Assembly (NCBI GenBank): GCA_009840735.1
Contig: VXNF01000083.1
Coordinates: 10,040 to 74,039, forward strand
Direction of reading: 5' to 3'
DNA from: Acidimicrobiia bacterium
Lineage (GTDB): Bacteria > Actinomycetota > Acidimicrobiia > Acidimicrobiales > CATQHL01
Length of the DNA stretch: 64,000 nt
Both the position numbers and the translations under genes were made by a program. Below the pieces are notes generated by a model. It was not told the DNA's origin and did not search any database. It worked only from the letters and a program-made list of their open reading frames with translations. Position 1 is the stretch's first letter; every line of letters begins with the position of its first letter. Of the stretch, positions 3,073 through 14,737 are shown in pieces.

Positions 3073-4047
3073 TCAGAATCGCTGCGAGAGCTGCGCGTTT
3101 TCGTCCGGCACCATGAGCGACCGCAGGTGGGCCGCCGCTGTTGCTTGGCCGGCGGCGGTCGCCTCGGGCCAGGCGCTGCCCGTGAGGCGGGCCGCCAGCA
3201 GGCCGCCGGCGAAGGCGTCGCCCGCGCCGGTGGTGTCCGGCACGTCCCCCAGGCTTGGCGGCGTGACGGGCTCGCCGTCGAATCCGCCGCCGTAGAGGCG
3301 CGTCGGGCGCGCTCCGTCCTTTACGATCACGAGGTCGGCGAGCCTGCGGTGGCCTCCTGTGGCCGCCAGCAGGGCGGCCTCGCCGGCATCGCACAGCAGC
3401 ACCTCGGCGCCGATGTCGGTGAGGGTGGACCTGAAGGCGTCGATCCCTGTGTCGCGAATGGCGCCCACGGAGCAGGCGTCAACGCTCACGGCACCGCCGG
3501 CGCCGCGGACGGCACCGATCATCTCGCAGGCCACCGAGCGGGAGGGTTCGCTCAGCAGCGAGTAGCCCGCCACATGCAGCATCGCCAAATCTTCCAGCCA
3601 CGCCGGCGTGAAGCTGGCGAAGTCGGCGCAGGCGCCCCGGTCGGTCAGCATCGTCCGCTCGCCGCCGGCGCCGAGGAGCACCACCACGGTGCCGCTGCGA
3701 CCGCCGCGGTACACGCAGGGCTGCACCCCGGCGGCGGCCAACTCCCCCAGCAGGCGGTCCCCCGGCCCGTCTTGGCCCACCTGCCCGAAGAACCGCACCC
3801 GACCTGGCCCGAGCACCCCGGCAGCGGCCACCGCCGCGTTCGCCGCGCTGCCACCGCGGCGCCGCCGGATGACGCAGGGGGTATCGGTGTCGGCCCGCAC
3901 CTCGCTGCGGTGCTGCACCACCACGTCCTCGAGCAAGTCTCCCAGGAAGCCCAGCGCCGCTGCGGGGCCGCGGTCGGGGTGCGAAGTGCGGGCCTGCGAC
4001 GCAACGGCAGGCGCGCTGGCCCGAGTCTCGGGGGAGGTGGCGGCCAT
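3073..4047 (-). CDS. PfkB-family carbohydrate/nucleoside kinase (ribokinase-like)
   Basis: The product has the C-terminal DTTGAGDAFAGGLLA anion-hole motif and an N-terminal GGSAANAAVA motif. I moved the start to the ATG at 4047 (MAATSPE...), because the 415-aa track ORF runs back into the upstream hydrolase gene. Confidence 0.8.
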   Translation of the reverse strand: MAATSPETRASAPAVASQARTSHPDRGPAAALGFLGDLLEDVVVQHRSEVRADTDTPCVIRRRRGGSAANAAVAAAGVLGPGRVRFFGQVGQDGPGDRLLGELAAAGVQPCVYRGGRSGTVVVLLGAGGERTMLTDRGACADFASFTPAWLEDLAMLHVAGYSLLSEPSRSVACEMIGAVRGAGGAVSVDACSVGAIRDTGIDAFRSTLTDIGAEVLLCDAGEAALLAATGGHRRLADLVIVKDGARPTRLYGGGFDGEPVTPPSLGDVPDTTGAGDAFAGGLLAARLTGSAWPEATAAGQATAAAHLRSLMVPDENAQLSQRF

Positions 4048-4090
4048 CGGCGGGCTCGGGGCAGGCGGCGCGACTCCGGCGCGGGCCGCG

Positions 4091-5014
4091 TCAGCGCAGG
4101 GTCTCGCAGAGCAGCGACATGAACGCCTCCGGGGGCACATGGGTGACCACCGCGGCGTTCGCAGGCTTGCCGCTGATGGCGTTGTGGTCGACGATCGTCT
4201 GGCCCCGCGCCGGGCCGTCGCCGGGCACGACTTCCACGTAGAAGTCCTGCGTCTCAGCGATCGTCGGATCGAGGGCGACCGCCATCGCCAACGGGTCCGG
4301 CAGGTCGAAGCCCACCGCACCGGTCATCCTGCCCACGAACTCCACCAAGGCGCGCTGGATGTCGCAGGTGAACTCCGAGTAGGGCGTGCCGATCGCCCGC
4401 AGCCGGGCCTCGCCCTCGGGGCCCACGAAGGCGCAGCTCCAGGACACGTCCCAGCCCACCATGGTGATCGGCATCCCCGACTCGAAGACGATGCGCGCCG
4501 CCTCAGGATCGACGAAGATATTGAACTCCGCCGCCGGCGTGATGTTGCCGGGCAGCCGCCCGGTCCCGCCCATGACGTAGCAGTGCTTCACGGCGCCGGC
4601 CAGCTCCGGTGCCCGCAGCAGCGCGGTGCCCACGTTGGACAGCGGCCCCAAGGTGACGAGGTCGATCTCGCCGGGGGCGGCGCAGATGGTCTCGACCAGC
4701 ACGTCCACCGCGTGGCCCTCTGCGGCGCTGCGCCCGCCGAGATCCAAGCCGATGTCGCCGAGGCCGTCGTTGCCGTGAACCATCTCGGCCGTGGTCAGCT
4801 CCCGGAACATGGGCTGCGCCAAGCCCGCATGCACCGGCACCGACGAGCCGCACAGCTCAACGGTGTAGAGGGCGTTCTGCACGCAGCGGTCCAGCGGCAC
4901 GTTGCCTGCGGTGATCGTCAGCGCCTCGACGTTCACCTCCGGTGCGCGCAGCGCCATGATCAGCGCAACGGCGTCGTCGGAGGCGGTGTCAGTGTCGATC
5001 AGGAATCGGCGCAC
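4091..5014 (-). CDS. Nucleoside hydrolase (inosine/uridine-preferring family)
   Basis: The N-terminal fingerprint is MRRFLIDTDTASDDAVAL (DxDxxxDD). It is followed by HGNDGLGD and a full-length IUNH-like body. Confidence 0.9.
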   Translation of the reverse strand: MRRFLIDTDTASDDAVALIMALRAPEVNVEALTITAGNVPLDRCVQNALYTVELCGSSVPVHAGLAQPMFRELTTAEMVHGNDGLGDIGLDLGGRSAAEGHAVDVLVETICAAPGEIDLVTLGPLSNVGTALLRAPELAGAVKHCYVMGGTGRLPGNITPAAEFNIFVDPEAARIVFESGMPITMVGWDVSWSCAFVGPEGEARLRAIGTPYSEFTCDIQRALVEFVGRMTGAVGFDLPDPLAMAVALDPTIAETQDFYVEVVPGDGPARGQTIVDHNAISGKPANAAVVTHVPPEAFMSLLCETLR

Positions 5015-5052
5015 GGCGTGCTCCTCAGCTTCTTCGTCAGTCCAGCGGGTCC

Positions 5053-6141
5053 TCAGCCGGCGGCCAGGCGGGCGTAGCCGGGCTTGATGACGTTGTCGAT
5101 CAGATGTAGCCGCTCGTCGAAGGGGATGAACGAGCTCTTAATTGCGTTGATCGTGAGCCAGCGCAGGTCGGACAGCGTCCAGCCGTAGGCCTCGGCGCAG
5201 AGCTGCATCTCCTTGCTGAGGCAGGTGTCGCTCATGAGGCGGTTGTCGGTGTTGATGGTGACGCGAAACCGCAGGCGCGCCAGCAGGTCGATGGGGTGCT
5301 CGGCGATGGAGGGCGCCAGGGCTGTGTGGACGTTCGAGCTGGGGCAGAGCTCCAAGGGGATGCGGCGGTCCCGCACGTAGGCGGCCAGAGGCCCGAGCTG
5401 CGGCGCGGCCTCGGGGTCGTCGGCGTCCAGGGCGATGTCCTCGACGATGCGCACGCCGTGACCGAGACGCTCGGCGCCGCAGTACTGCACCGCCTCCCAG
5501 ATCGAAGGCAGGCCGAAACCCTCCCCGGCATGGATCGTGAAGTGGAAATTGGCCCGTTGCAGGTATTGGAAGGCCGCGATGTGGCGGGTCGGCGGGTGGC
5601 CCGCCTCAGCGCCGGCGATGTCGAAGCCGACGATGCCGTCGTGACGGTGACGCACCGCCAGCTCGGCCACCTCCAGGGCGTGCGCGGCGTGGCGCATGGC
5701 GCACAGCAACCCCACGACGCGGATGCTGCGCCCCCGGCTGCCGGCGGCGAATCCGTCCAGCACGCTGCGCACCACCTCGTCGGTGCTGAGCCCTCGTTCG
5801 GTGTGCAACTCGGGGGCGAAGCGCACCTCGGCGTAGACGACGCCGTCAGCGGCGAGGTCCTCGGCGCACTCGGCGGCCACCCGGGCGATGCTCTGGGGCG
5901 TCTGCATCACGCCGAGGGTGTGGACGAAGGTCTCCAGGTAGGCCTCGAGACTCTCGCCGGAGGCGGCCCGGGTCATCCAGCGGCCCAGCTCGGCGGGGTC
6001 CCCCGTGGGCAACCCTCGATAGCCCGTCTCGGCGGCCAGCTCCACGATCGTGGCGGGCCGGAGCCCGCCGTCCAGGTGGTCGTGCAGCAGCGCCTTGGGG
6101 GCTTGCCGGATCTCCTCGGGAGACGGGACAGCGGCGTTCAC
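5053..6141 (-). CDS. add: Adenosine deaminase
   Basis: The product contains [19 protein letters not shown] and [11 protein letters not shown] motifs. I set the start at the GTG at 6141, which forms a GTGA overlap with the deoA stop. The 804-aa track ORF is an artificial upstream extension. Confidence 0.9.
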
Positions 6142-7430
6142 GCCCGCCCGCCGGCCGTGACGCGGTCCAGCACCAGCGGCTTCTTCGGGCCGGCTTCGGC
6201 GACGATCTCGAAGCCGCCCTCCAGAGCGGCCAGCGCGCCCGGCAGCAGCGACTCGTCGTCGGTGTGCAACTCCAGCAGCGGCTCGCCGGCGCGCACCGCG
6301 TCGCCCTCGGCGGCCCGGCACACCACACCGGCGGTGGGGCTCACCGGATCCTCCTTGCGGGCGCGCCCGGCGCCGAGACGCCAAGCGGCGATACCCACCG
6401 CCAGGGCGTCGAGGTGACCCAGAGCGCCGTCGGCGGGCGCGTTGATCGTCTCCACGACGCGGGCCTGCGGCAGGTCGGCGTCGGGGTCGCCGCCCTGGGC
6501 GGCGATCATTGCCCGCCAGCTGTCCATGGCGGCGCCGGTGGCCAGGACCTCGGCGGGGTCGGCGTCCAGGCCCGCCAACTCCACCATCTCCCGGGCCAAG
6601 GCGAGAGTCACCTCGACGAGGTCCGCGGGCCCGCCACCGGCGAGGGTCTCCACTGACTCGCGCACCTCTAAGGCGTTGCCGGCGGTCAGCCCCAGCACGG
6701 TGTCCATCCTTGTCAGCAGTGCCGCGGTGCGCACGCCGTGGGCCTCGCCCAGGCTGACCATCGCCTCGGCCAGCATGCGGGCAGCGGCGTGGGTCTTCAT
6801 GAAGGCTCCTGAACCGACCTTGACGTCCAGGGCCAGGGCGCCGGTGCCTTCGGCGATCTTCTTGCTCATGATCGAGCTGGCGATCAGCGGGATCGACGGC
6901 ACCGTGCCGGTCACGTCCCGCAGGGCGTAGATCCGCCGGTCGGCAGGCGCCAGCCCGGCACCGGCAGCGCAGATCACGGCGCCGACGTCGGCCAGCTGCG
7001 ACAGGATCTCGGCGTTGGAGAGGGCGGCGCGCCAGCCGGCGATGGCTTCCAGCTTGTCCAGCGTGCCGCCGGTGTGGCCCAGTCCCCGGCCCGAGAGCTG
7101 CGGCACCGCCGCGCCGCAGGCCGCCAGCAGCGGCGCCAGAACCAGCGAGACCTTGTCGCCGACGCCGCCGGTGGAGTGCTTGTCGACGGTCGGGCGGTCG
7201 AGGCCTGAGAGGTCGAGGCGCTCGCCGGAGTCGATCATGGCCTGGGTCCAGGTGGCCAGCTCGTCGCTCTGCATCTCTCGGAAGTAGATGGCCATCAGCA
7301 GCGCCGAGGCCTGCTCGTCGGGGATCGCCCCGGCGGTGTAGCCCTCGATGAACCAGGCGATCTCCGCTGGCGTCAGCGCCCGCCCGTCCCTCTTGGCGCA
7401 GATCACCTCGACGGCGGAGCAGTCGCTCAC
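6138..7430 (-). CDS. deoA: Thymidine (pyrimidine-nucleoside) phosphorylase
   Basis: The product contains [15 protein letters not shown] and [16 protein letters not shown] motifs and is 430 aa long. Its GTG start overlaps the cdd stop (GTGA at 7427-7430). Confidence 0.9.
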
Positions 7431-7840
7431 AGGTCCTCGGGGCCGAAGGCGTCAGGCAGCAGGTCACCCAAGGTGGCGTCGCGGTTGATGAGGAGTCCGG
7501 GCCCTCCGACCTCGTAGAGGACCTGGCGGCAGCGACCGCAGGGCTTGCCCGCAGGCAGGTCGTCGAGGTCGTAGCCGCCGACCACCGCCACGGCCACGAG
7601 GCGCCCGCCGCCGCTGGTGTGCAGGGCGCACACTAGTGAGCACTCGGCGCAAAGCCCCAGCCCGTAGGAGGCGTTCTCCGCGTTGCAGCCCACGAGGATC
7701 CGCCCGTCGTCCACGAGGCCCGCGGCGCCCACGTGGTAGCGGGAGTAAGGGCAGTAGGCGTTGGCGGCCACCGCCCGGGCGCGTCGGAACAGATCGTCCC
7801 AGTCCGCCGCGGCGGCCGTGACAGCCCCGCCGGCGGTCAT
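7427..7840 (-). CDS. cdd: Cytidine deaminase
   Basis: The zinc motifs CAEC and PCGRCRQ are present, along with an [13 protein letters not shown] segment. The start is the ATG at 7840, in an ATGA overlap with the permease stop. Confidence 0.9.
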
Positions 7841-9186
7841 TGCTGCTGGCCGCGCCGGTAGCGCATGCCGTCGGCGGCGGGCATGCGCAGCTTCGAGGTG
7901 TAGAACAGCAGCACCAGCAGCACCGTGATGTAAGGAAGCGCCTGGGGGAACTGCTTGGGGACTGTCTCGGTCAGGTAGTGCCACACGGCGAATCCGCCTG
8001 CGGCGATGGCCAGCCCGACCGCGGCGCGGTGCCGGCGTCGGACCAAGAACACCAGCGCCACGAGGCCCAAGGCCAGCACCACGAGCAGCAGCAGCCCGTG
8101 AACCGCGGACCGGTCGCGCAGCTGCAGCGTGTCGGTGAAGCCGAACAGCAGGCCGCCGAGCGCCGCGCCCACGGGTCGCCAGTTGCCGAAGATGGTGGTG
8201 GCGAGGCCGATGAAGCCCCGGCCCGCGGTCTGGCCCTCCCGGTAGATGCCGGTCAGCTCAATCACCAGGAAGGCGCCGCCGTAACCCGCGAAGGCGCCCG
8301 ACAGCACCACGCCGTAGTACTTGTAGCGGTACACGTCCACGCCGAGGCTGTCGGCGGCGATGGGGTGCTCGCCGCAGCTGCGCAGGCGCAGCCCCCACGA
8401 CGTGCGCCACAGCAGCCACACCGAGAGCGGCACGGTGGCGTAGGCGATGAGCGTCAGCCAGGACACCTCCCAGAGGAAGCCGCGGAGAATGCCCGCGGCG
8501 TCGGAGATCCAGAACCAGTCCCAACTCTCGATGCGCCCGAGGGCGTCCGCGGTCCCGGCCCCGCCGGCGAGGAAGGAAATGCTGAAGGAGTCGACGTCCT
8601 CAACCCGCGGCGACTGCGTGATGCCCCCGCCGGGGCGCCCCTGGAAGACCTTGTCGGACAGGAAGCGGGTGATCCCCGGCGCCATCACCAGGATGGCCGC
8701 ACCGGAGATGATGTGGTCCACGCCGAAGCTCACCGTGGCAATGGCGTGCAGCAGGCCACCGACAGCGCCGCCCGCGGCGCCGATGAGCATGCCCCACCAC
8801 GGCCCGAACTCCAGAGCGCCGTAGGCGCCGAACCAGGTGCCGAGGATGAGCATTCCCTCCAGACCGATGTTCACCACGCCGGCCCGCTCGGCGAAGATGC
8901 CTCCCATGGCGGGCATCAGGATCGGCACCGCGTAGGCGAGCGCGATCGACCAGGTGGTGCTGTTGGCGAGCTGGTCAGTGGCCGGCCGGGCGAACTGCTC
9001 GGTGATGGCGAGCAGCGCCACGCCGATGACGGTGACGGCGGCGAGCTGCAGGCGGCGCTGGAACTGCCGGTCCTGCGGTGTGTTCGTCGGGCGCGGGTAC
9101 CAGCTGGGTCGGCCGGCGAAGCGCTCGAAGGGCCGCCAGGGCTGTTGGGCGCCGTCGCCGGGGGTGGTGTCTGAGGAGAGCGTCAT
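7837..9186 (-). CDS. ABC transporter permease (BMP/nucleoside-type)
   Basis: This is a polytopic membrane protein with 449 codons. It lies in an operon with a BMP binding protein and a duplicated-ATPase ABC component. An ATGA overlap joins it to the upstream permease. Confidence 0.85.
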   Translation of the reverse strand: MTLSSDTTPGDGAQQPWRPFERFAGRPSWYPRPTNTPQDRQFQRRLQLAAVTVIGVALLAITEQFARPATDQLANSTTWSIALAYAVPILMPAMGGIFAERAGVVNIGLEGMLILGTWFGAYGALEFGPWWGMLIGAAGGAVGGLLHAIATVSFGVDHIISGAAILVMAPGITRFLSDKVFQGRPGGGITQSPRVEDVDSFSISFLAGGAGTADALGRIESWDWFWISDAAGILRGFLWEVSWLTLIAYATVPLSVWLLWRTSWGLRLRSCGEHPIAADSLGVDVYRYKYYGVVLSGAFAGYGGAFLVIELTGIYREGQTAGRGFIGLATTIFGNWRPVGAALGGLLFGFTDTLQLRDRSAVHGLLLLVVLALGLVALVFLVRRRHRAAVGLAIAAGGFAVWHYLTETVPKQFPQALPYITVLLVLLFYTSKLRMPAADGMRYRRGQQQ

Positions 9187-10370
9187 GGCGCGGGCCTCGA
9201 GTCGGGCGCGGCAGCGTCGGTGGCGCCCTCAGCGGGCGGATCCGCCTCGCTGGAGGCCATGGCGAGCGAGGCGGCGCGGGCTTCTTCGTCCTGGCGGCGC
9301 CGCTGCACCACGACGTAGGTGATGACCGCCGCGAAGATGATGATGCCCTTCATGATCTCCACGATCTCCTGGGGGGCGTCCCCGTGGACGTCGAGGATCG
9401 GCGCCGCGCTGTCCAAGAACCCGAACACCAGCGCGCCGATGGCGATGCCGCCCGGATGGTTCTGGCCGAGCAGCGCCACGGCGATGCCGGCGAAGCCGAG
9501 GTTCTGGGTGAACTGCAGCCCGTAGGCGTAGTCGCGTCCCAGCACCTCCGGCAGCCCCACGAGCCCCCCGACCGCCCCACTGAGCGCCATGGCCACGATG
9601 ACGGTGCGCTTGGGGGAGACGCCGGAGGCCTCGGCGGCCAGCGGGTTGATGCCCGAGGCCCGCAGGTCGTAGCCGGGCCGCGTCCTCGCCACGTAGAGCC
9701 AGTAGAGGATCCCGATGATGATCGCCACGATCACGAACCCCCACAGCACCCGACCCTTGGAGATCTCCCGCGTGAACAGCTCGACGAAGCCGTTGAGGTT
9801 CGGCATGCGGCCCGAGGGCGGGATCTCGGCTGTCTCCTGATTGAGGCTCTCGTCGGGCACGTCCCACTGCCTGAAGAGCATCGCCACGACCAGGCTGATC
9901 GAGATTGCGTTGAGCATGATCGTGGAGATCACCTCATGGATGCCGCGGGTCACCTTCAGGACGCCGGCGATCAGCGCCCACATCGACCCGGTCGCCATGC
10001 CGACCAGGATGATGACCGTCAAGTGCAACGGCGCGGGCAGCGACAGCTCGGCGGCGACCTGCGCGGCGATGATCGACGCCAGGATGTACTGGCCCTCCAC
10101 GCCGATGTTGAAGAGGTTCATGCGGAAGCCGATCGCCACCGCCACCGCCGACAGGTACAGCGGCGTGGCCCGGTTGACCATGTCGACGAGGGTCTCCAAC
10201 TCGAACCCGTAGGAGAACATCCGCCCGTAGGCCGGGAAAGGGTTGCTGCCGCTGAGCACGAGCGCGATCGACGCCACCGCCAGCGACAGGATCAGCGCCG
10301 CCACGGGAGCGGCCAAGGCCAGCGTCAGGCGGCGGTGCGCCGGCAGCCGGTAGGCGGCGCGAGCGGTCAT
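9183..10370 (-). CDS. ABC transporter permease (BMP/nucleoside-type)
   Basis: The product contains the segment MNLFNIGVEGQYILA, typical of simple-sugar and nucleoside ABC permeases. I moved the start to the ATG at 10370 (MTARAAYRL...), in an ATGA overlap with the ATPase stop. Confidence 0.85.
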   Translation of the reverse strand: MTARAAYRLPAHRRLTLALAAPVAALILSLAVASIALVLSGSNPFPAYGRMFSYGFELETLVDMVNRATPLYLSAVAVAIGFRMNLFNIGVEGQYILASIIAAQVAAELSLPAPLHLTVIILVGMATGSMWALIAGVLKVTRGIHEVISTIMLNAISISLVVAMLFRQWDVPDESLNQETAEIPPSGRMPNLNGFVELFTREISKGRVLWGFVIVAIIIGILYWLYVARTRPGYDLRASGINPLAAEASGVSPKRTVIVAMALSGAVGGLVGLPEVLGRDYAYGLQFTQNLGFAGIAVALLGQNHPGGIAIGALVFGFLDSAAPILDVHGDAPQEIVEIMKGIIIFAAVITYVVVQRRRQDEEARAASLAMASSEADPPAEGATDAAAPDSRPAP

Positions 10371-11905
10371 GCGGGCTGGGGCTCCTCGACGTCGGCGGCC
10401 GCGCCGGTCATGTGGGCGCCCAGCTCCCGGGGGGTGACCGTCGCCGGATCCAGCGCGGCGGAGATGCGGCCGCGGAACACGACGAGCAGGCGGTCCGAGA
10501 GCCCGATCAACTCGTCTAGATCGGCTGATACCAGCAGCACCGCCAGCCCTTGCTCGCGGGCGCGGTGCAGGGTCTCCCAGACGGCGGCCTGCGCGCCCAC
10601 GTCGATGCCTCTCGTGGGGTGCGCGGCGATTAGCAGGTTCGGCGTCATGACCATCTCGCGCCCGATGATGAGCTTCTGCTGGTTGCCGCCCGAGAGCGCA
10701 TGGGCCGCCACGTCGGGCCCCGGCGTGCGCACGTCGAAGGCGGCGATGAGCTCCCGGGTCCGCTGGCGCGCTGCCTTGGGGGTCAGCCAGAAGCCGTGGC
10801 GCGAGTACGGCTCCTTGCTCTGGTGGCCGCACATGGCGTTCTCCCACAGGGGTGCCGGCAGCAGAAGGCCTCGCCGGTGACGATCCTCGGGGATGTACCC
10901 GACGCCCGCCTCGCGTCGCTGGCGCACCGTCCACTCGTTGATCTCGCTGCCCTCGAGGAGAACTTGGCCCCCAGCGGGCGCCCGGATCCCCAACAGGGCC
11001 TCCACGAACTCGACTTGGCCGTTGCCTTCCACGCCGGCCATGCCCACGATCTCGCCGCGGCGCACCTCCAGGCTGATCCCCTTGACGACCGCCCGCTCAT
11101 CGTCGTCGAGCACCGAGAGATCCTTCACCTCCAGGGCGACGGCGTCCTGTGCCGCCGTGGTCCGGGCCTCCGGCGTGGGAAGCTCCGAACCGACCATCAG
11201 CTCCGCTAGATCGCGCGGCGACACCTCCTCGGGCTTCACCGTGGCGACGGTCCGCCCCGCTCGGAGCACGGTGATCGTGTCGGCGATCTCGAGCACCTCG
11301 TCCAGCTTGTGGTCGATGAAGACGATGGTCTCGCCGCGGGCGCACATGTCCCGCATGTTGCGGAACAGCTCCTCCACCTCGTGGGGGACCAGCACCGAGG
11401 TGGGCTCGTCCAGGATGAGAATGCGGGCGCCCCGGTAGAGCACTTTGATGATCTCGACGCGCTGGCGCTCGCCCACGCCGAGGTTCTCGACCGGTTCGTC
11501 GAGGTGTACGTCGAGTCCGTAGGCGTCGCTCAGCTCGGCCACGCGCCGGCGAGCCCTGGCGAAGTCGATGCGCCCGGCGCGCCCGGTCGGTTCGGCGCCG
11601 AGGATGATGTTCTCCAGCACGGTCAGGTTGTCGGCCAGCATGAAATGCTGGTGCACCATGCCGATGCCGGCAGCCAGGGCGTCCCGCGGCGAGCGGAAAT
11701 GCACCTCGTCGCCCCTCACGACGATGCGCCCCTCGTCGGCGGGGAGCATGCCGTACAGCACGTTCATGAGCGTGGACTTGCCGGCGCCGTTCTCGCCGCA
11801 GATGGCGTGGATCTCGCCCTCGGCGACGGTGAGGTTGACGCGGTCGTTGGCGAGCACGCCGGGGAACCGCTTCGTGATGTCCTCTAACGACAGAGCCGGC
11901 GTCAT
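10367..11905 (-). CDS. ABC transporter ATP-binding protein (two fused ATPase domains)
   Basis: The Walker A is GENGAGKST. LSGGNQQK-type signature motifs are present, and the two nucleotide-binding halves total 512 aa. Confidence 0.9.
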   Translation of the reverse strand: MTPALSLEDITKRFPGVLANDRVNLTVAEGEIHAICGENGAGKSTLMNVLYGMLPADEGRIVVRGDEVHFRSPRDALAAGIGMVHQHFMLADNLTVLENIILGAEPTGRAGRIDFARARRRVAELSDAYGLDVHLDEPVENLGVGERQRVEIIKVLYRGARILILDEPTSVLVPHEVEELFRNMRDMCARGETIVFIDHKLDEVLEIADTITVLRAGRTVATVKPEEVSPRDLAELMVGSELPTPEARTTAAQDAVALEVKDLSVLDDDERAVVKGISLEVRRGEIVGMAGVEGNGQVEFVEALLGIRAPAGGQVLLEGSEINEWTVRQRREAGVGYIPEDRHRRGLLLPAPLWENAMCGHQSKEPYSRHGFWLTPKAARQRTRELIAAFDVRTPGPDVAAHALSGGNQQKLIIGREMVMTPNLLIAAHPTRGIDVGAQAAVWETLHRAREQGLAVLLVSADLDELIGLSDRLLVVFRGRISAALDPATVTPRELGAHMTGAAADVEEPQPA

Positions 11906-11946
11906 GGCGTCGCGACCGACCTCCTCCGTGAGGCGGTGTCGGCGGA

Positions 11947-14061
11947 TCAGCCGGTCGTCTCCGGCACGACGATGTCGCCGCGGATGATGGCCTGCTTAAG
12001 CTCCTCGAGCTGCGGGATGATGTCGTTCATGAAGCCGCCGGAGATGGAGTAGCCCACCCCGTTGGCTGCGAGGTCGAAGACCGTGACGCCGCCGGTGAAG
12101 GTGCCGTTCACCACCCTCTCGATGGCGGTGTAGACAGCCACGTCCACCCGCTTCAGCATCGAGCTGAGGATGTAGGGGCGGACCTCCTCCGCGGACGTGA
12201 AGTACTGGTCAGAGTCCACGCCGATGGCCCACACCTTGGAGCCGCCCGCCTCGCTGAACTCCTTGGCCGCCTCGAACAGGCCCGCGCCCGTCCCGCCGGC
12301 GGCGTGATAGATGACGTCCGCGCCGCTCTCGTACATGGACTGGGCGATGATCTTGCCCTCCGCGGGCTGCGACCAGCCGTCGAAGTCGGGCGGCTCGGTC
12401 ACATAGGCGTCCAGGATCTCGATGTTCGGGTCGATGGCTCGGACACCGGCCTCGAAACCGGCGTGGAAGCGCCGAATCAGCGGGATGTCAACGCCGCCGA
12501 TGAAGCCGACGGTTCCGGTGGTGGACTTCAGCGCTGCGGCCGCGCCGACGAGGAACGAGCCTTCGTGCTCGGCGAAGACCAGCCCGGCGAGGTTGTCGGT
12601 GCCGTCGGGGGCGCTGTCGATGATGCCGAAGAGCGTGTCGGGGTTGTTGGCGGCCACCTCGGTGATGGACTCGCCGAACAGGAAGCCCACGCCGATGACG
12701 AGGTCGGCGCCGTCGGCGGAGAGCTGCAGCATCTCGGCCCGGTTGGAGCCGTCGGGGTTGGGCGAGGCCTCGGTGGTGTTCACGCCCAGCTGGGCTGCGG
12801 CCCGGTCGAGCCCGGCGGCGGCGGAGTCGTTGAACGACTGGTCGCCGCGCCCGCCGATGTCGAACACCAGCGCCGCGGTCACGTCCTCGCCGCCGCCGCG
12901 CTCGGTGGTCTCGGGCACCACGATGCTGCCGCCCACGATGGCCTGCTTGAATTCCTCCAGCTGCGGCACGATGTCGTCCACGAACCCGCCGGTTGTGGAG
13001 TAGCCGACGCCGTCCACGGCAAGGTTGAAGACAGTGGTGCCGCCGGTGAAGTCGCCGTTGGCGGCCGCTTCGATGGTGCTGTAGACGGCCACGTCCACCC
13101 GCTTCAGCATCGAGGTGAGGATGTAGGGGCGGACCTCCTCCGCGGAGGTGTTGTACTGGTCGGAGTCCACGCCGATGGCCCACACGTGGGTGCCGGTCGA
13201 CTCGCTGTACTCCTTGGCCGCCTCGAACAGGCCCGCGCCCGAGCCGCCGGCGGCGTGGTAGATGACGTCCGCTCCCGCCTCGTACATCGACTGGGCGACG
13301 ATCTTGGCCTCCGCCGGCTGGAACCAGCCGTCGAAGTCGGGCGGCTCGGTGATGTAGGCGTCCAGGATCCGGATGTCCGCGTTGACGGCCCTGGCGCCCG
13401 CCTCGAAGCCGGCGTGGAAGCGCCGGATGAGGTCGATGTCGACGCCGCCGATGAAGCCGACGGTTCCGGTGGTGGACTTCAGCGCTGCGGCCGCGCCGAC
13501 GAGGAACGAGCCTTCGTGCTCGGCGAAGACCAGCCCGGCGAGGTTGTCGGTGCCGTCGGGGGCGCTGTCGATGATGCCGAAGAGCGTGTCGGGGTTGTTG
13601 GCGGCCACCTCGGTGATGGACTCGCCGAACAGGAAGCCCACGCCGATGACGAGGTCGGCGCCGTCGGCGGAGAGCTGCAGCATCTCGGCCCGGTTGGAGC
13701 CGTCGGGGTTGGGCGAGGCCTCGGTGGTGTTCACGCCCAGCTGGGCTGCGGCCCGGTCGAGCCCGGCGGCGGCGGAGTCGTTGAACGACTGGTCGCCGCG
13801 CCCGCCGATGTCGAACACCAGCGCCGCGGTGATGTCCTCAGCGCCTGGCGGCGGTGGAGGCGGTGGCTCTGCCGGTGCGTCAGCTGGCGCCTCTGCGGGC
13901 GCGTCGGCGGGCGGTGGGGCAGGCGACTCGGATGCTCCGTCATCTGCGGCCGGCGCCGGTGGCGGGGCTGTCGTCGTCGGCTCGTCGTCGCCGCCGCACG
14001 CTGCGGCAACCATCACGGTGGCCAGCAGGATTGCCAGCAGTCCGGTGATCCCTCGTCGCAT
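11947..14061 (-). CDS. Tandem-duplicated BMP-family ABC substrate-binding lipoprotein
   Basis: I set the start at the ATG at 14061, giving MRRGITGLLAILLATVMVAAACGG, a lipobox signal peptide. An Ala/Pro-rich linker follows. After it come two complete BMP (basic membrane protein/PnrA-like) domains with a 951-nt period. Confidence 0.85.
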   Translation of the reverse strand: MRRGITGLLAILLATVMVAAACGGDDEPTTTAPPPAPAADDGASESPAPPPADAPAEAPADAPAEPPPPPPPGAEDITAALVFDIGGRGDQSFNDSAAAGLDRAAAQLGVNTTEASPNPDGSNRAEMLQLSADGADLVIGVGFLFGESITEVAANNPDTLFGIIDSAPDGTDNLAGLVFAEHEGSFLVGAAAALKSTTGTVGFIGGVDIDLIRRFHAGFEAGARAVNADIRILDAYITEPPDFDGWFQPAEAKIVAQSMYEAGADVIYHAAGGSGAGLFEAAKEYSESTGTHVWAIGVDSDQYNTSAEEVRPYILTSMLKRVDVAVYSTIEAAANGDFTGGTTVFNLAVDGVGYSTTGGFVDDIVPQLEEFKQAIVGGSIVVPETTERGGGEDVTAALVFDIGGRGDQSFNDSAAAGLDRAAAQLGVNTTEASPNPDGSNRAEMLQLSADGADLVIGVGFLFGESITEVAANNPDTLFGIIDSAPDGTDNLAGLVFAEHEGSFLVGAAAALKSTTGTVGFIGGVDIPLIRRFHAGFEAGVRAIDPNIEILDAYVTEPPDFDGWSQPAEGKIIAQSMYESGADVIYHAAGGTGAGLFEAAKEFSEAGGSKVWAIGVDSDQYFTSAEEVRPYILSSMLKRVDVAVYTAIERVVNGTFTGGVTVFDLAANGVGYSISGGFMNDIIPQLEELKQAIIRGDIVVPETTG
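12491..12879. repeat. 389-bp perfect direct repeat, copy 1 (inside the BMP gene)
   Basis: By base-by-base visual comparison this segment is identical to 13442-13830, at an offset of 951 nt. The flanking sequence on both sides of each copy is diverged. Confidence 0.9.
13442..13830. repeat. 389-bp perfect direct repeat, copy 2 (inside the BMP gene)
   Basis: This segment is identical to 12491-12879. It encodes the same ~129 aa, ITAALVFDIGGRGDQSFNDSAAAGLDRAAAQLG...TGTVGFIGGVDI. Confidence 0.9.
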
Positions 14062-14212: not shown

Positions 14213-14737
14213 CTAACCGGGACCGGGCCGCCGCGCGGCTCGCCTCGGGCGCAGCCCGCTTGCTCCGCTGCGGGGCTCCGCCAGCGCTCCGCTGCGGGGC
14301 TCCGCCAGCGCCGGGCCCCCGCGGCGGGTTCGCTTGAGACAGTTCCGGCAGCCGAGACGGCGGCGGTTGCGGGCGACCAGCGCGTAGACGCCGGCGGCGA
14401 GGAGCGAGATCCCCGGCCAGGCCAAGACCCGCCCCAGGCGAGCCCAGACGCCCTCGCAGGCCCCCAGCGCGGCGGCGATCGCCCGGTGCCCGCGGCGGCG
14501 GCCACCGACATCGATCCACCAGGCGGCCTCGGCGGCCTGCTGTGCGGTGAGACCGAGGGCAGCCAAGTCAGCCCGCTCAGCGGGCACGACGGCGACGTCA
14601 GCGGTCAGCCTGGCGCGGATCCAGTCGGCGCAGCGACCGCAGAAGGCGCAGTCGCCGTCGTAGACGAGCGCCGGGAGGTCGGGTGCCGCCGGGCCGACTT
14701 CGGTGTGGCTCACTGCGACGCCTGGATCCGGAGGCAT
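14213..14737 (-). CDS. DCC-family thiol-disulfide oxidoreductase (DUF393)
   Basis: The motif LVYDGDCAFCGRCADWI matches the YDGxCxxC signature of the family. I chose the ATG at 14737 so that the gene does not overlap the bL37-like ORF. A GTG a few codons downstream is also possible. Confidence 0.65.
   Translation of the reverse strand: MPPDPGVAVSHTEVGPAAPDLPALVYDGDCAFCGRCADWIRARLTADVAVVPAERADLAALGLTAQQAAEAAWWIDVGGRRRGHRAIAAALGACEGVWARLGRVLAWPGISLLAAGVYALVARNRRRLGCRNCLKRTRRGGPALAEPRSGALAEPRSGASGLRPRRAARRPGPG
14262..14309. repeat. Perfect 24-nt tandem duplication (2 copies)
   Basis: The unit gctccgctgcggggctccgccagc occurs twice in tandem. It encodes ALAEPRSG-ALAEPRSG in the C-terminal tail of the DCC-family ORF. 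Confidence 0.85.

Follow-up and report, generated by a model that had tools for sequence, protein, structure and literature searches.

Nucleoside-binding lipoproteins of the PF02608 family include PnrA/TmpC of Treponema pallidum, PnrA of Streptococcus pneumoniae, BmpD and BmpA of Borrelia, and Lbp of C. thermocellum. PnrA holds its nucleoside by an aromatic sandwich and by ribose-binding Asp, Asp and Lys residues, with a specificity loop around Asp27-Phe36 (PMC7093131, PMC13325309). Here we describe a tandem member of this family, encoded at 11947..14061 on the minus strand of a 64,000-nucleotide (nt) stretch of Acidimicrobiia DNA (contig VXNF01000083.1 of assembly GCA_009840735.1, positions 10,040 to 74,039), referred to below as the window. 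The gene and its setting share with the PnrA family the predicted fold, the aromatic sandwich, the ribose Asp/Asp/Lys set, the lipoprotein signal, and the company of a fused double ATPase and two BPD_transp_2 permeases. Unlike the characterised single-domain BMP members, however, this protein carries two full domains on one chain, held on a Pro-rich tether of ~50 residues. A smaller difference lies in the second stacking aromatic, which is Trp here and Phe in PnrA.

Tandem binding domains are a feature of GlnPQ from Lactococcus lactis, in which two amino-acid-type domains of differing specificity (SBD1-SBD2) are fused to the transmembrane subunit (PMC8025302). By analogy with GlnPQ, the tandem binding domains in the window would serve one ATP-binding cassette (ABC) importer across a short linker, and both may capture substrate and compete to dock. 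The window protein differs from GlnPQ in being a separate BMP-class lipoprotein that is not fused to the permease, and in having the same pocket residues in both halves. A literature search turned up no account of BMP proteins in tandem form, nor of concerted evolution among them. To our knowledge, tandem binding domains have been studied almost solely in GlnPQ-type importers. The pattern of variation in the gene resembles concerted evolution generally, with significant identical fragments arranged as a mosaic, discordant trees for different segments, and a hybrid third unit in one relative. What departs from the usual picture is that the repeats are whole 317-residue ligand-binding domains within one transporter gene, and that a fixed 3′ segment resists homogenisation in many species. 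In its architecture the protein is a novel form within a familiar family of binding proteins, and it shows concerted evolution in an otherwise ordinary transporter; as such it is of moderate interest.

The explanation that we favour, and consider likely, is that this is a real tandem lipoprotein found across the genus, that its duplication is old, that its two units have recombined recurrently, and that the 389 nt of perfect identity between them in the window overstate the true tract because of assembly collapse. The window belongs to genome G000, a fragmented metagenome-assembled genome (MAG) of 2.72 Mb in 126 contigs that is 84% complete, and it lies on contig 44. The original prediction, made from the sequence alone, had correctly described a reading frame of 705 codons (704 amino acids plus the stop) at 11947-14061 containing two BMP domains with a 951-nt period. 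Self-alignment at an offset of 951 nt defines the first repeat unit, D1 (residues 75-391, 951 nt, 12889..13839), and the second, D2 (residues 392-704, 11950..12888), which are on the minus strand, as are all the features of the gene and its operon given below.

The tandem arrangement recurs well beyond this assembly. Within the genus, a full-length match with a 951-nt period is found in at least 13 species, represented by the single-contig genomes G003, G015 and G016 and at least 10 others, and several of these tandems sit on megabase contigs. The junction ...VVPETTERGGGED(V/I)(T/S)AAL... is common to all of them. Comparing relatives for one versus two domains, as had been proposed, thus gave two in at least 13 species, with no stop at the junction. 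In a tree of the 3′ segment (the last ~77 codons), 13 D1 and 13 D2 sequences fall on opposite sides of one branch, and none of 500 shuffles of the labels separated them as well. This reciprocal monophyly implies that the duplication predates the genus. Sequence comparison therefore indicates that the fusion is genuine and older than the genus, and it overturns the earlier suggestion of a very recent duplication.

The tandem form is restricted to certain lineages, judging by the genomes sampled. An even sample of the class, covering 120 other species, contained 19 close orthologues, all of them single-domain, and the tandem form in 0 of the 120. In the sister genus, the gene is single-domain in two of three species. 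Protein databases, on the other side, hold hundreds of tandem BMP proteins of ~690-780 amino acids, a triple, and larger fusions. The description of tandem-fused binding proteins as uncommon holds for the even sample of the class. In G020, Ca. Spongiisociaceae and L031, the 3′ segment gives weak support either to an independent origin of the tandem or to its descent from the same old duplication. Larger fusions are represented by L033 and L035 (Acidimicrobiales / Ca. Microthrix MAGs) and the proteins P0109, P0111 and P0157. They comprise BMP joined to SBP_bac_3, an amino-acid-type binding domain, and to more binding-protein-like sequence in one frame of 700-960 amino acids, a 1047-residue protein with three Bmp stretches, and a 3060-residue protein with seven matched stretches. 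Contig C25 (L003, of the same genome as the window) was examined as a possible site of a second double-BMP gene with a reported frame of 714 amino acids, and was found to hold a single distant BMP-like open reading frame cut by the contig start. Streptosporangium L057 was set aside as a cultured tandem: its tblastn match spans two domains, but it includes a separate 365-residue gene, and there is no fusion.

Within the gene, the similarity of the two units is uneven. As assembled, the window carries an exact 389-nt repeat, with one copy at 13442..13830 in D1 and the other at 12491..12879 in D2 (self-offset 951 nt). On both sides of this run the units are homologous and 74-92% identical in 51-nt bins. 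The run comprises 156 consecutive concordant polymorphic sites, which is significant by a Sawyer-type permutation test (P <= 1e-4) that counts only positions polymorphic in a set of 26 related domain sequences. The same test gives P < 0.05 in seven other species (G002, G003, G007, G009, G012, G013 and G015). A 241-nt core (13442..13682 in D1 and 12491..12731 in D2) is also an exact repeat in L108, a locus of the same species, where it occupies gene positions 380-620 and comprises 91 concordant polymorphic sites (P = 5e-5). We regard this core as the most secure part of the conversion tract. Longer exact runs occur elsewhere: 810 nt with a 975-nt period in G020, and 952 nt in the Ca. Spongiisociaceae chromosome. 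All three of these tracts are on megabase contigs, which are apparently long-read assemblies. In L031, likewise on a megabase contig, a 416-nt run is followed by decay toward the 3′ end.

Across the genus, the identity between D1 and D2 within a genome forms a mosaic, and its near-100% blocks are positioned differently between species. They cover unit nt 0-400 in the window, 459-660 in both G002 and G015, 510-660 in G012, and ~200-800 in G013. Over unit nt 0-700, paralogues resemble each other about as closely as orthologues do, and paralogues within a genome are more alike than paralogues between genomes. Over the last ~230 nt, paralogue identity is 0.76-0.80 versus 0.82-0.90 for orthologues. 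The 389-nt tract of the window is 92% identical to its orthologues, no closer to them than other parts of the gene, but matches its paralogue at every base. The pattern extends to protein sequences, in which identical runs between halves reach 310 residues. Among 34 tandem homologues, the halves are 83-100% identical over the first 235 residues, and identity over the last 75 residues is equal or lower in 33 of the 34, the exception being P0102 (0.99 vs 1.00). In the window, the paralogue-specific 3′ segment that escapes homogenisation, of ~75 codons, lies at 12910..13134 in D1 and at 11959..12183 in D2, and carries fixed D1/D2 differences.

Trees of the two parts of the gene conflict in the same way. 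Over the first ~235 codons, D1 and D2 sequences are intermixed, with six label changes, at least four of which are forced by strongly supported branches, and an approximately unbiased (AU) test rejects a D1 clade in this 5′ segment (p = 0.026). Four label changes remain when L108 is used in place of the window, and the G011 pair and the G012 pair are each sisters; with this substitution, D1 and D2 of the window species are not sisters over 700 nt. Together, the mosaic blocks, the discordant segment trees and the permutation tests point to ongoing homologous recombination between the units. They support a role for conversion, for expansion and contraction of the array, or for both in driving homogenisation, and the proposal of intragenic gene conversion is upheld as a process.

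The G008 gene (L022, contig 48; P0007) has at least three BMP units, and its middle unit joins a D2-type helix-1 patch (AADFLRV) to a D1-type C-terminus, followed by an ERGGGED linker. This hybrid fits unequal crossing-over, and mis-assembly is possible, since the gene is cut at a contig end of a fragmented MAG. In L110 and L111, two further loci of the window species, 15 substitutions relative to the window are clustered in D2 (gene positions 1551-1791, 2043 and 2064) against a background that is ~99.3% identical. The cluster does not make D2 more like D1, and looks like an imported recombination tract from a more distant strain.

The length of the perfect repeat is a separate matter, and turns on a patch of nine variable sites that lies just beyond the 241-nt core. 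The patch occupies gene positions 315-379 in D1 (13683..13747) and 1266-1330 in D2 (12732..12796), and has two alleles: A encodes AAAQLG...M and B encodes AADFLR...L at helix 1. In the window both units carry A, which is the D1-type state across the genus. In L108 and 12 other species D2 carries B, and the patch is a D1-vs-D2 signature in all 12 of those species. The D2 copy in the window is therefore the probable site of a collapse.

Five further loci of the same species, reached through proteins 98-100% identical to the tandem lipoprotein, bear on this interpretation. L108, on a 3.17-Mb contig with flanks 99.3-99.6% identical to the window, has A in D1 and B in D2, and its longest exact run is the 241 nt already noted. 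The scaffold L112, identical to the window over 8.1 kb, is A/A with a run of 389 nt, as is the window itself. L109/L113 (a scaffold) is B/B with a run of 389 nt, and L110 (a scaffold) and L111 (a contig) are B/B with runs of 368 nt. The five fragmented assemblies, the MAG of the window among them, are thus A/A or B/B, and never A/B. L113 and the window come from adjacently numbered samples. Over 14,517 nt they differ at the 18 patch positions and at one of the 14,499 other sites. It is implausible that two strains so nearly identical underwent opposite conversions, and allele B must be present in the reads of L113. A single A/B strain, merged by the assembler in either direction, would be the simplest account of both sequences.

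Metagenome assemblers merge simple bubbles where the identical flank is longer than the k-mer. In the window, 83 identical bases separate the copy-specific flank from the patch, which would form a simple bubble for k-mers below 83, and read pairs would then lead the assembly along the merged path a second time. L108 has two synonymous changes in D1 only, at gene positions 243 and 246 (CTC GTA for CTG GTG), which reduce the identical stretch before its patch to 68 nt. From the sequences compared, the perfect 389 nt most likely reflect short-read merging of a patch of nine single-nucleotide polymorphisms (SNPs), affecting 148 of the 389 bases. At the level of the species, the secure tract is a 241-nt exact run inside a 389-nt region that is ~97% identical. 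The 389-bp perfect identity first reported (12491-12879 = 13442-13830) is accordingly exact in the given sequence, but doubtful as a property of the organism. An assembly artefact, also raised in the original prediction, is likely for these 148 bases and contradicted for the fusion itself by the single-contig genomes that carry it. The label "N-terminal lobe" given to the repeat is approximate as well: in the structure model, residues 78-207 run through the first lobe, cross the hinge for the first time and end ~30-40 residues into the second lobe.

The most serious alternative for the window is that the 389-nt identity is real, produced by a very recent conversion of D2 by D1 across the patch, with the opposite conversion in the B/B sisters, so that the species would be polymorphic for A/A, A/B and B/B. 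This gene family plainly undergoes conversion, the 241 and ~70-80 identical bases around the patch are ample substrate for recombination, and in the first 235 codons both units of the window (G000_1 and G000_2) group within the D1 sequences. Such a history nevertheless requires conversion to have run in opposite directions in lineages otherwise set apart by one site in 14.5 kb, and leaves the A/B state absent from five fragmented assemblies while it is the state of the sole conspecific on a megabase contig. It would also have erased a D1/D2 difference conserved in 12 other species. Bubble merging by the assembler would give the same outcome if the 83-nt stretch exceeds the k-mer. We judge it rather unlikely. 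A direction of conversion from D1 to D2 in the window was suggested and then dropped, as the D2 patch is probably mis-assembled.

Other explanations fare far worse. If the whole tandem were an artefact, made from one BMP domain or two adjacent genes by looping of a repeat or by joining of strain variants, then the fragmentation of G000 into 126 contigs and the separate Streptosporangium gene under a two-domain match might be taken as hints of it. An open 704-residue frame with the PETTERGGGEDV junction in single-contig genomes and at least 13 species, a junction free of any stop and of any further signal peptide, and diverged homology on both flanks of the identical tract make this scarcely credible. 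That the tandem arose by a very recent duplication, with decay setting in at the 3′ end and no part for conversion, could be read from the near whole-unit identity in G020 and Ca. Spongiisociaceae if these were considered alone. It is very improbable for the genus, where the last 77 codons put the D1 and D2 copies of all 13 species into separate clades, identical blocks are placed differently in different species, and the tract has diverged from its orthologues like the rest of the gene while matching its paralogue. Strong purifying selection on the first lobe might likewise keep the copies alike, since the motifs best conserved in the family, DIGGRGDQSFND and FAEHEGSFLVG, fall within the tract. 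Every synonymous site is identical over 241-389 nt, however, whereas orthologues differ at ~8% of all sites there, and the permutation test counts polymorphic sites only; we give this idea almost no credence.

Several considerations also weigh against the explanation that we favour, of an old, genus-wide tandem with recurrent recombination and a collapsed patch. The collapse is inferred by comparing assemblies, and the short-read status of the five fragmented assemblies and long-read status of L108 are judged by the names and sizes of the contigs. The strain may truly be A/A or B/B, and units sharing more than 240 identical bases could recombine often. Conversion and expansion-contraction are not told apart by these data. 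Binding, equal specificity and delivery by the two domains are read from homology. Finally, the AlphaFold2 (AF2) model of the protein is of moderate confidence, with a mean predicted local distance difference test score (pLDDT) of 74.6 and a predicted template modelling score (pTM) of 0.60, and its relative placement of the domains is not reliable.

Both halves have the hallmarks of nucleoside receptors. Each aligns end to end with the characterised proteins of the family, among them PnrA of T. pallidum and of S. pneumoniae, at 30-34% identity (E ~1e-43), and each contains the equivalents of PnrA Asp27, Phe36, Asn37, Asp108, Phe186 (here Trp), Asp238 and Lys260. By alignment with 2fqw, these contact positions are D84/F93/N94/D165/W246/D299/K320 in D1 and D401/F410/N411/D482/W563/D616/K637 in D2. 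All of them except the Trp/Phe stacking position are invariant in the 34 tandem homologues, and so is the specificity loop DIGGRGDQSFND, which D1 and D2 share. Few differences between D1 and D2 are fixed throughout the genus (T/I at 282, V/I at 302, G/R at 303 and S,T/D at 305). These, together with several near-fixed positions and the helix-1 patch, leave the mapped pocket residues unaffected. The proposal of two ligand sites with different specificity thus finds no support in the sequences, in which the pocket residues and loop are the same and the differences lie outside the pocket. The conserved residues instead suggest that one lipid anchor carries a pair of equivalent nucleoside receptors, and that both work with the importer encoded downstream.

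We therefore envisage a lipid anchor followed by a disordered, Pro-rich tether that bears two complete PnrA/BMP domains joined by a linker of ~10-18 residues. Each domain would capture a nucleoside and hand it on to one shared permease, so that every anchor would carry two receptors in a GlnPQ-like manner. Since the duplication, recombination between the 951-nt units has recurrently made parts of the first ~700 nt alike, by non-reciprocal gene conversion, by unequal crossing-over with expansion and contraction, or by both. The last ~230 nt, and the helix-1 patch in most species, have stayed distinct, either because they are too diverged to recombine or because selection holds them so. A more specific idea is that the non-homogenised last ~75 residues and the helix-1 patch, in dozens of species, are under selection for position-specific roles while conversion keeps the pockets identical. 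We hold this to be improbable. Such roles could be docking on the permease, or turn-taking at it, by the membrane-proximal and membrane-distal domains.

The remaining layout of the protein agrees with this arrangement. Its gene has a GAGG motif a few bases upstream of the ATG, and the N-terminus of the 704-residue product, MRRGITGLLAILLATVMVAAAC, is a signal peptide with a lipobox. The signal peptide and lipobox, MRRGITGLLAILLATVMVAAA|C, are encoded at 13996..14061; the lipobox VAAAC occupies residues 18-22, and A21 and C22 are invariant in 34 homologues. A Pro/Ala-rich tether (residues 23-74, 13840..13995), predicted to be disordered, leads from the anchor to D1, and residues 16-74 have pLDDT below 50 in the AF2 model. 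In L017-L020 (G013, G012, G015 and G002), an Ala/Glu/Gln-rich, helix-like tether of ~150 residues replaces the Pro/Ala-rich one, and the proteins reach 770-780 amino acids. The short interdomain linker, ...PETTERGGGEDV..., covers residues 377-394 (12880..12933), and the AF2 model has no regular secondary structure between the helix at 359-376 and the strand at 395-399. In the translation, the junction of the two domains contains neither a stop nor a second signal peptide.

Profile and structure searches agree on the domain content. PF02608 (Bmp) matches the protein in two stretches (403.6 bits vs a cut-off of 24.1, E = 5.6e-121), the best of which spans residues 397-702 and profile positions 4-300 of 301. 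The AF2 model contains two alpha/beta binding-protein units, at residues 78-376 in D1 and 395-694 in D2. The top Foldseek matches are nucleoside-bound Lbp, BmpD and PnrA structures (7x0r, 6shu, 6y9u and 2fqw; E 1e-18 to 1e-20), with template modelling scores (TM-scores) normalised to the target of 0.66-0.75, in keeping with a two-lobed PnrA/BmpD-like fold. Sequence matches in the PDB are likewise to PnrA, BmpD and Lbp with nucleosides bound.

The lipoprotein gene stands first among nine co-directional genes for nucleoside uptake and catabolism at 3073-14061 of the window. It ends with a stop at 11947-11949, and is followed by an ABC ATPase of 512 residues with two fused ABC_tran domains (10367..11905; PF00005 in two stretches). 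The permeases are separate genes that begin two positions downstream of the lipoprotein gene: permease 1 (9183..10370; PF02653, called as a 395-residue gene in a conspecific locus) and permease 2 (7837..9186; PF02653), both of the BPD_transp_2 type. The protein thus combines a lipoprotein signal with linkage to a CUT2-type importer, with its fused double ATPase and two BPD_transp_2 permeases. Beyond them, the catabolism genes at 3073..7984, identified by Pfam matches, encode a cytidine deaminase, a pyrimidine-nucleoside phosphorylase, an adenosine deaminase, an inosine-uridine (IU) nucleoside hydrolase and a PfkB kinase. The Pfam content of the operon points to nucleoside uptake and catabolism. 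In NCBIfam, the sole match is NF047927, a putative vitamin B6 ABC transporter BMP-type binding protein, which covers both halves at 192.5 bits. This equivalog was rejected, as its score is far under the curated cut-off of 400, and the operon content indicates nucleosides rather than B6 as the substrate. On the other side of the lipoprotein gene, the window carries a perfect 24-nt tandem duplication (14262-14309) in the Arg/Pro-rich tail of the upstream gene for a DCC1-like thiol-disulfide oxidoreductase.

For genome scanning, the locus is a caution that a "perfect" internal repeat in a MAG may exceed the real one when the assembler merges sparse differences between copies. Here, comparison of independent assemblies of the same strain exposed the probable overstatement, and did so from assembled sequence rather than from reads. 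The gene itself provides a clean bacterial case of whole ligand-binding domains in concerted evolution, with a sharp and conserved limit and an apparent hybrid third unit caught mid-event. If the 3′ segments and helix-1 patch were position-specific, the protein would pair two equivalent sites with non-equivalent delivery modules, an arrangement undescribed for lipoprotein-type binding proteins. In an uncultured genus of Acidimicrobiales and neighbouring lineages, this free-standing, lipid-anchored tandem of nucleoside receptors would offer a second, independent system in which to consider how bacteria benefit from receptors in tandem.

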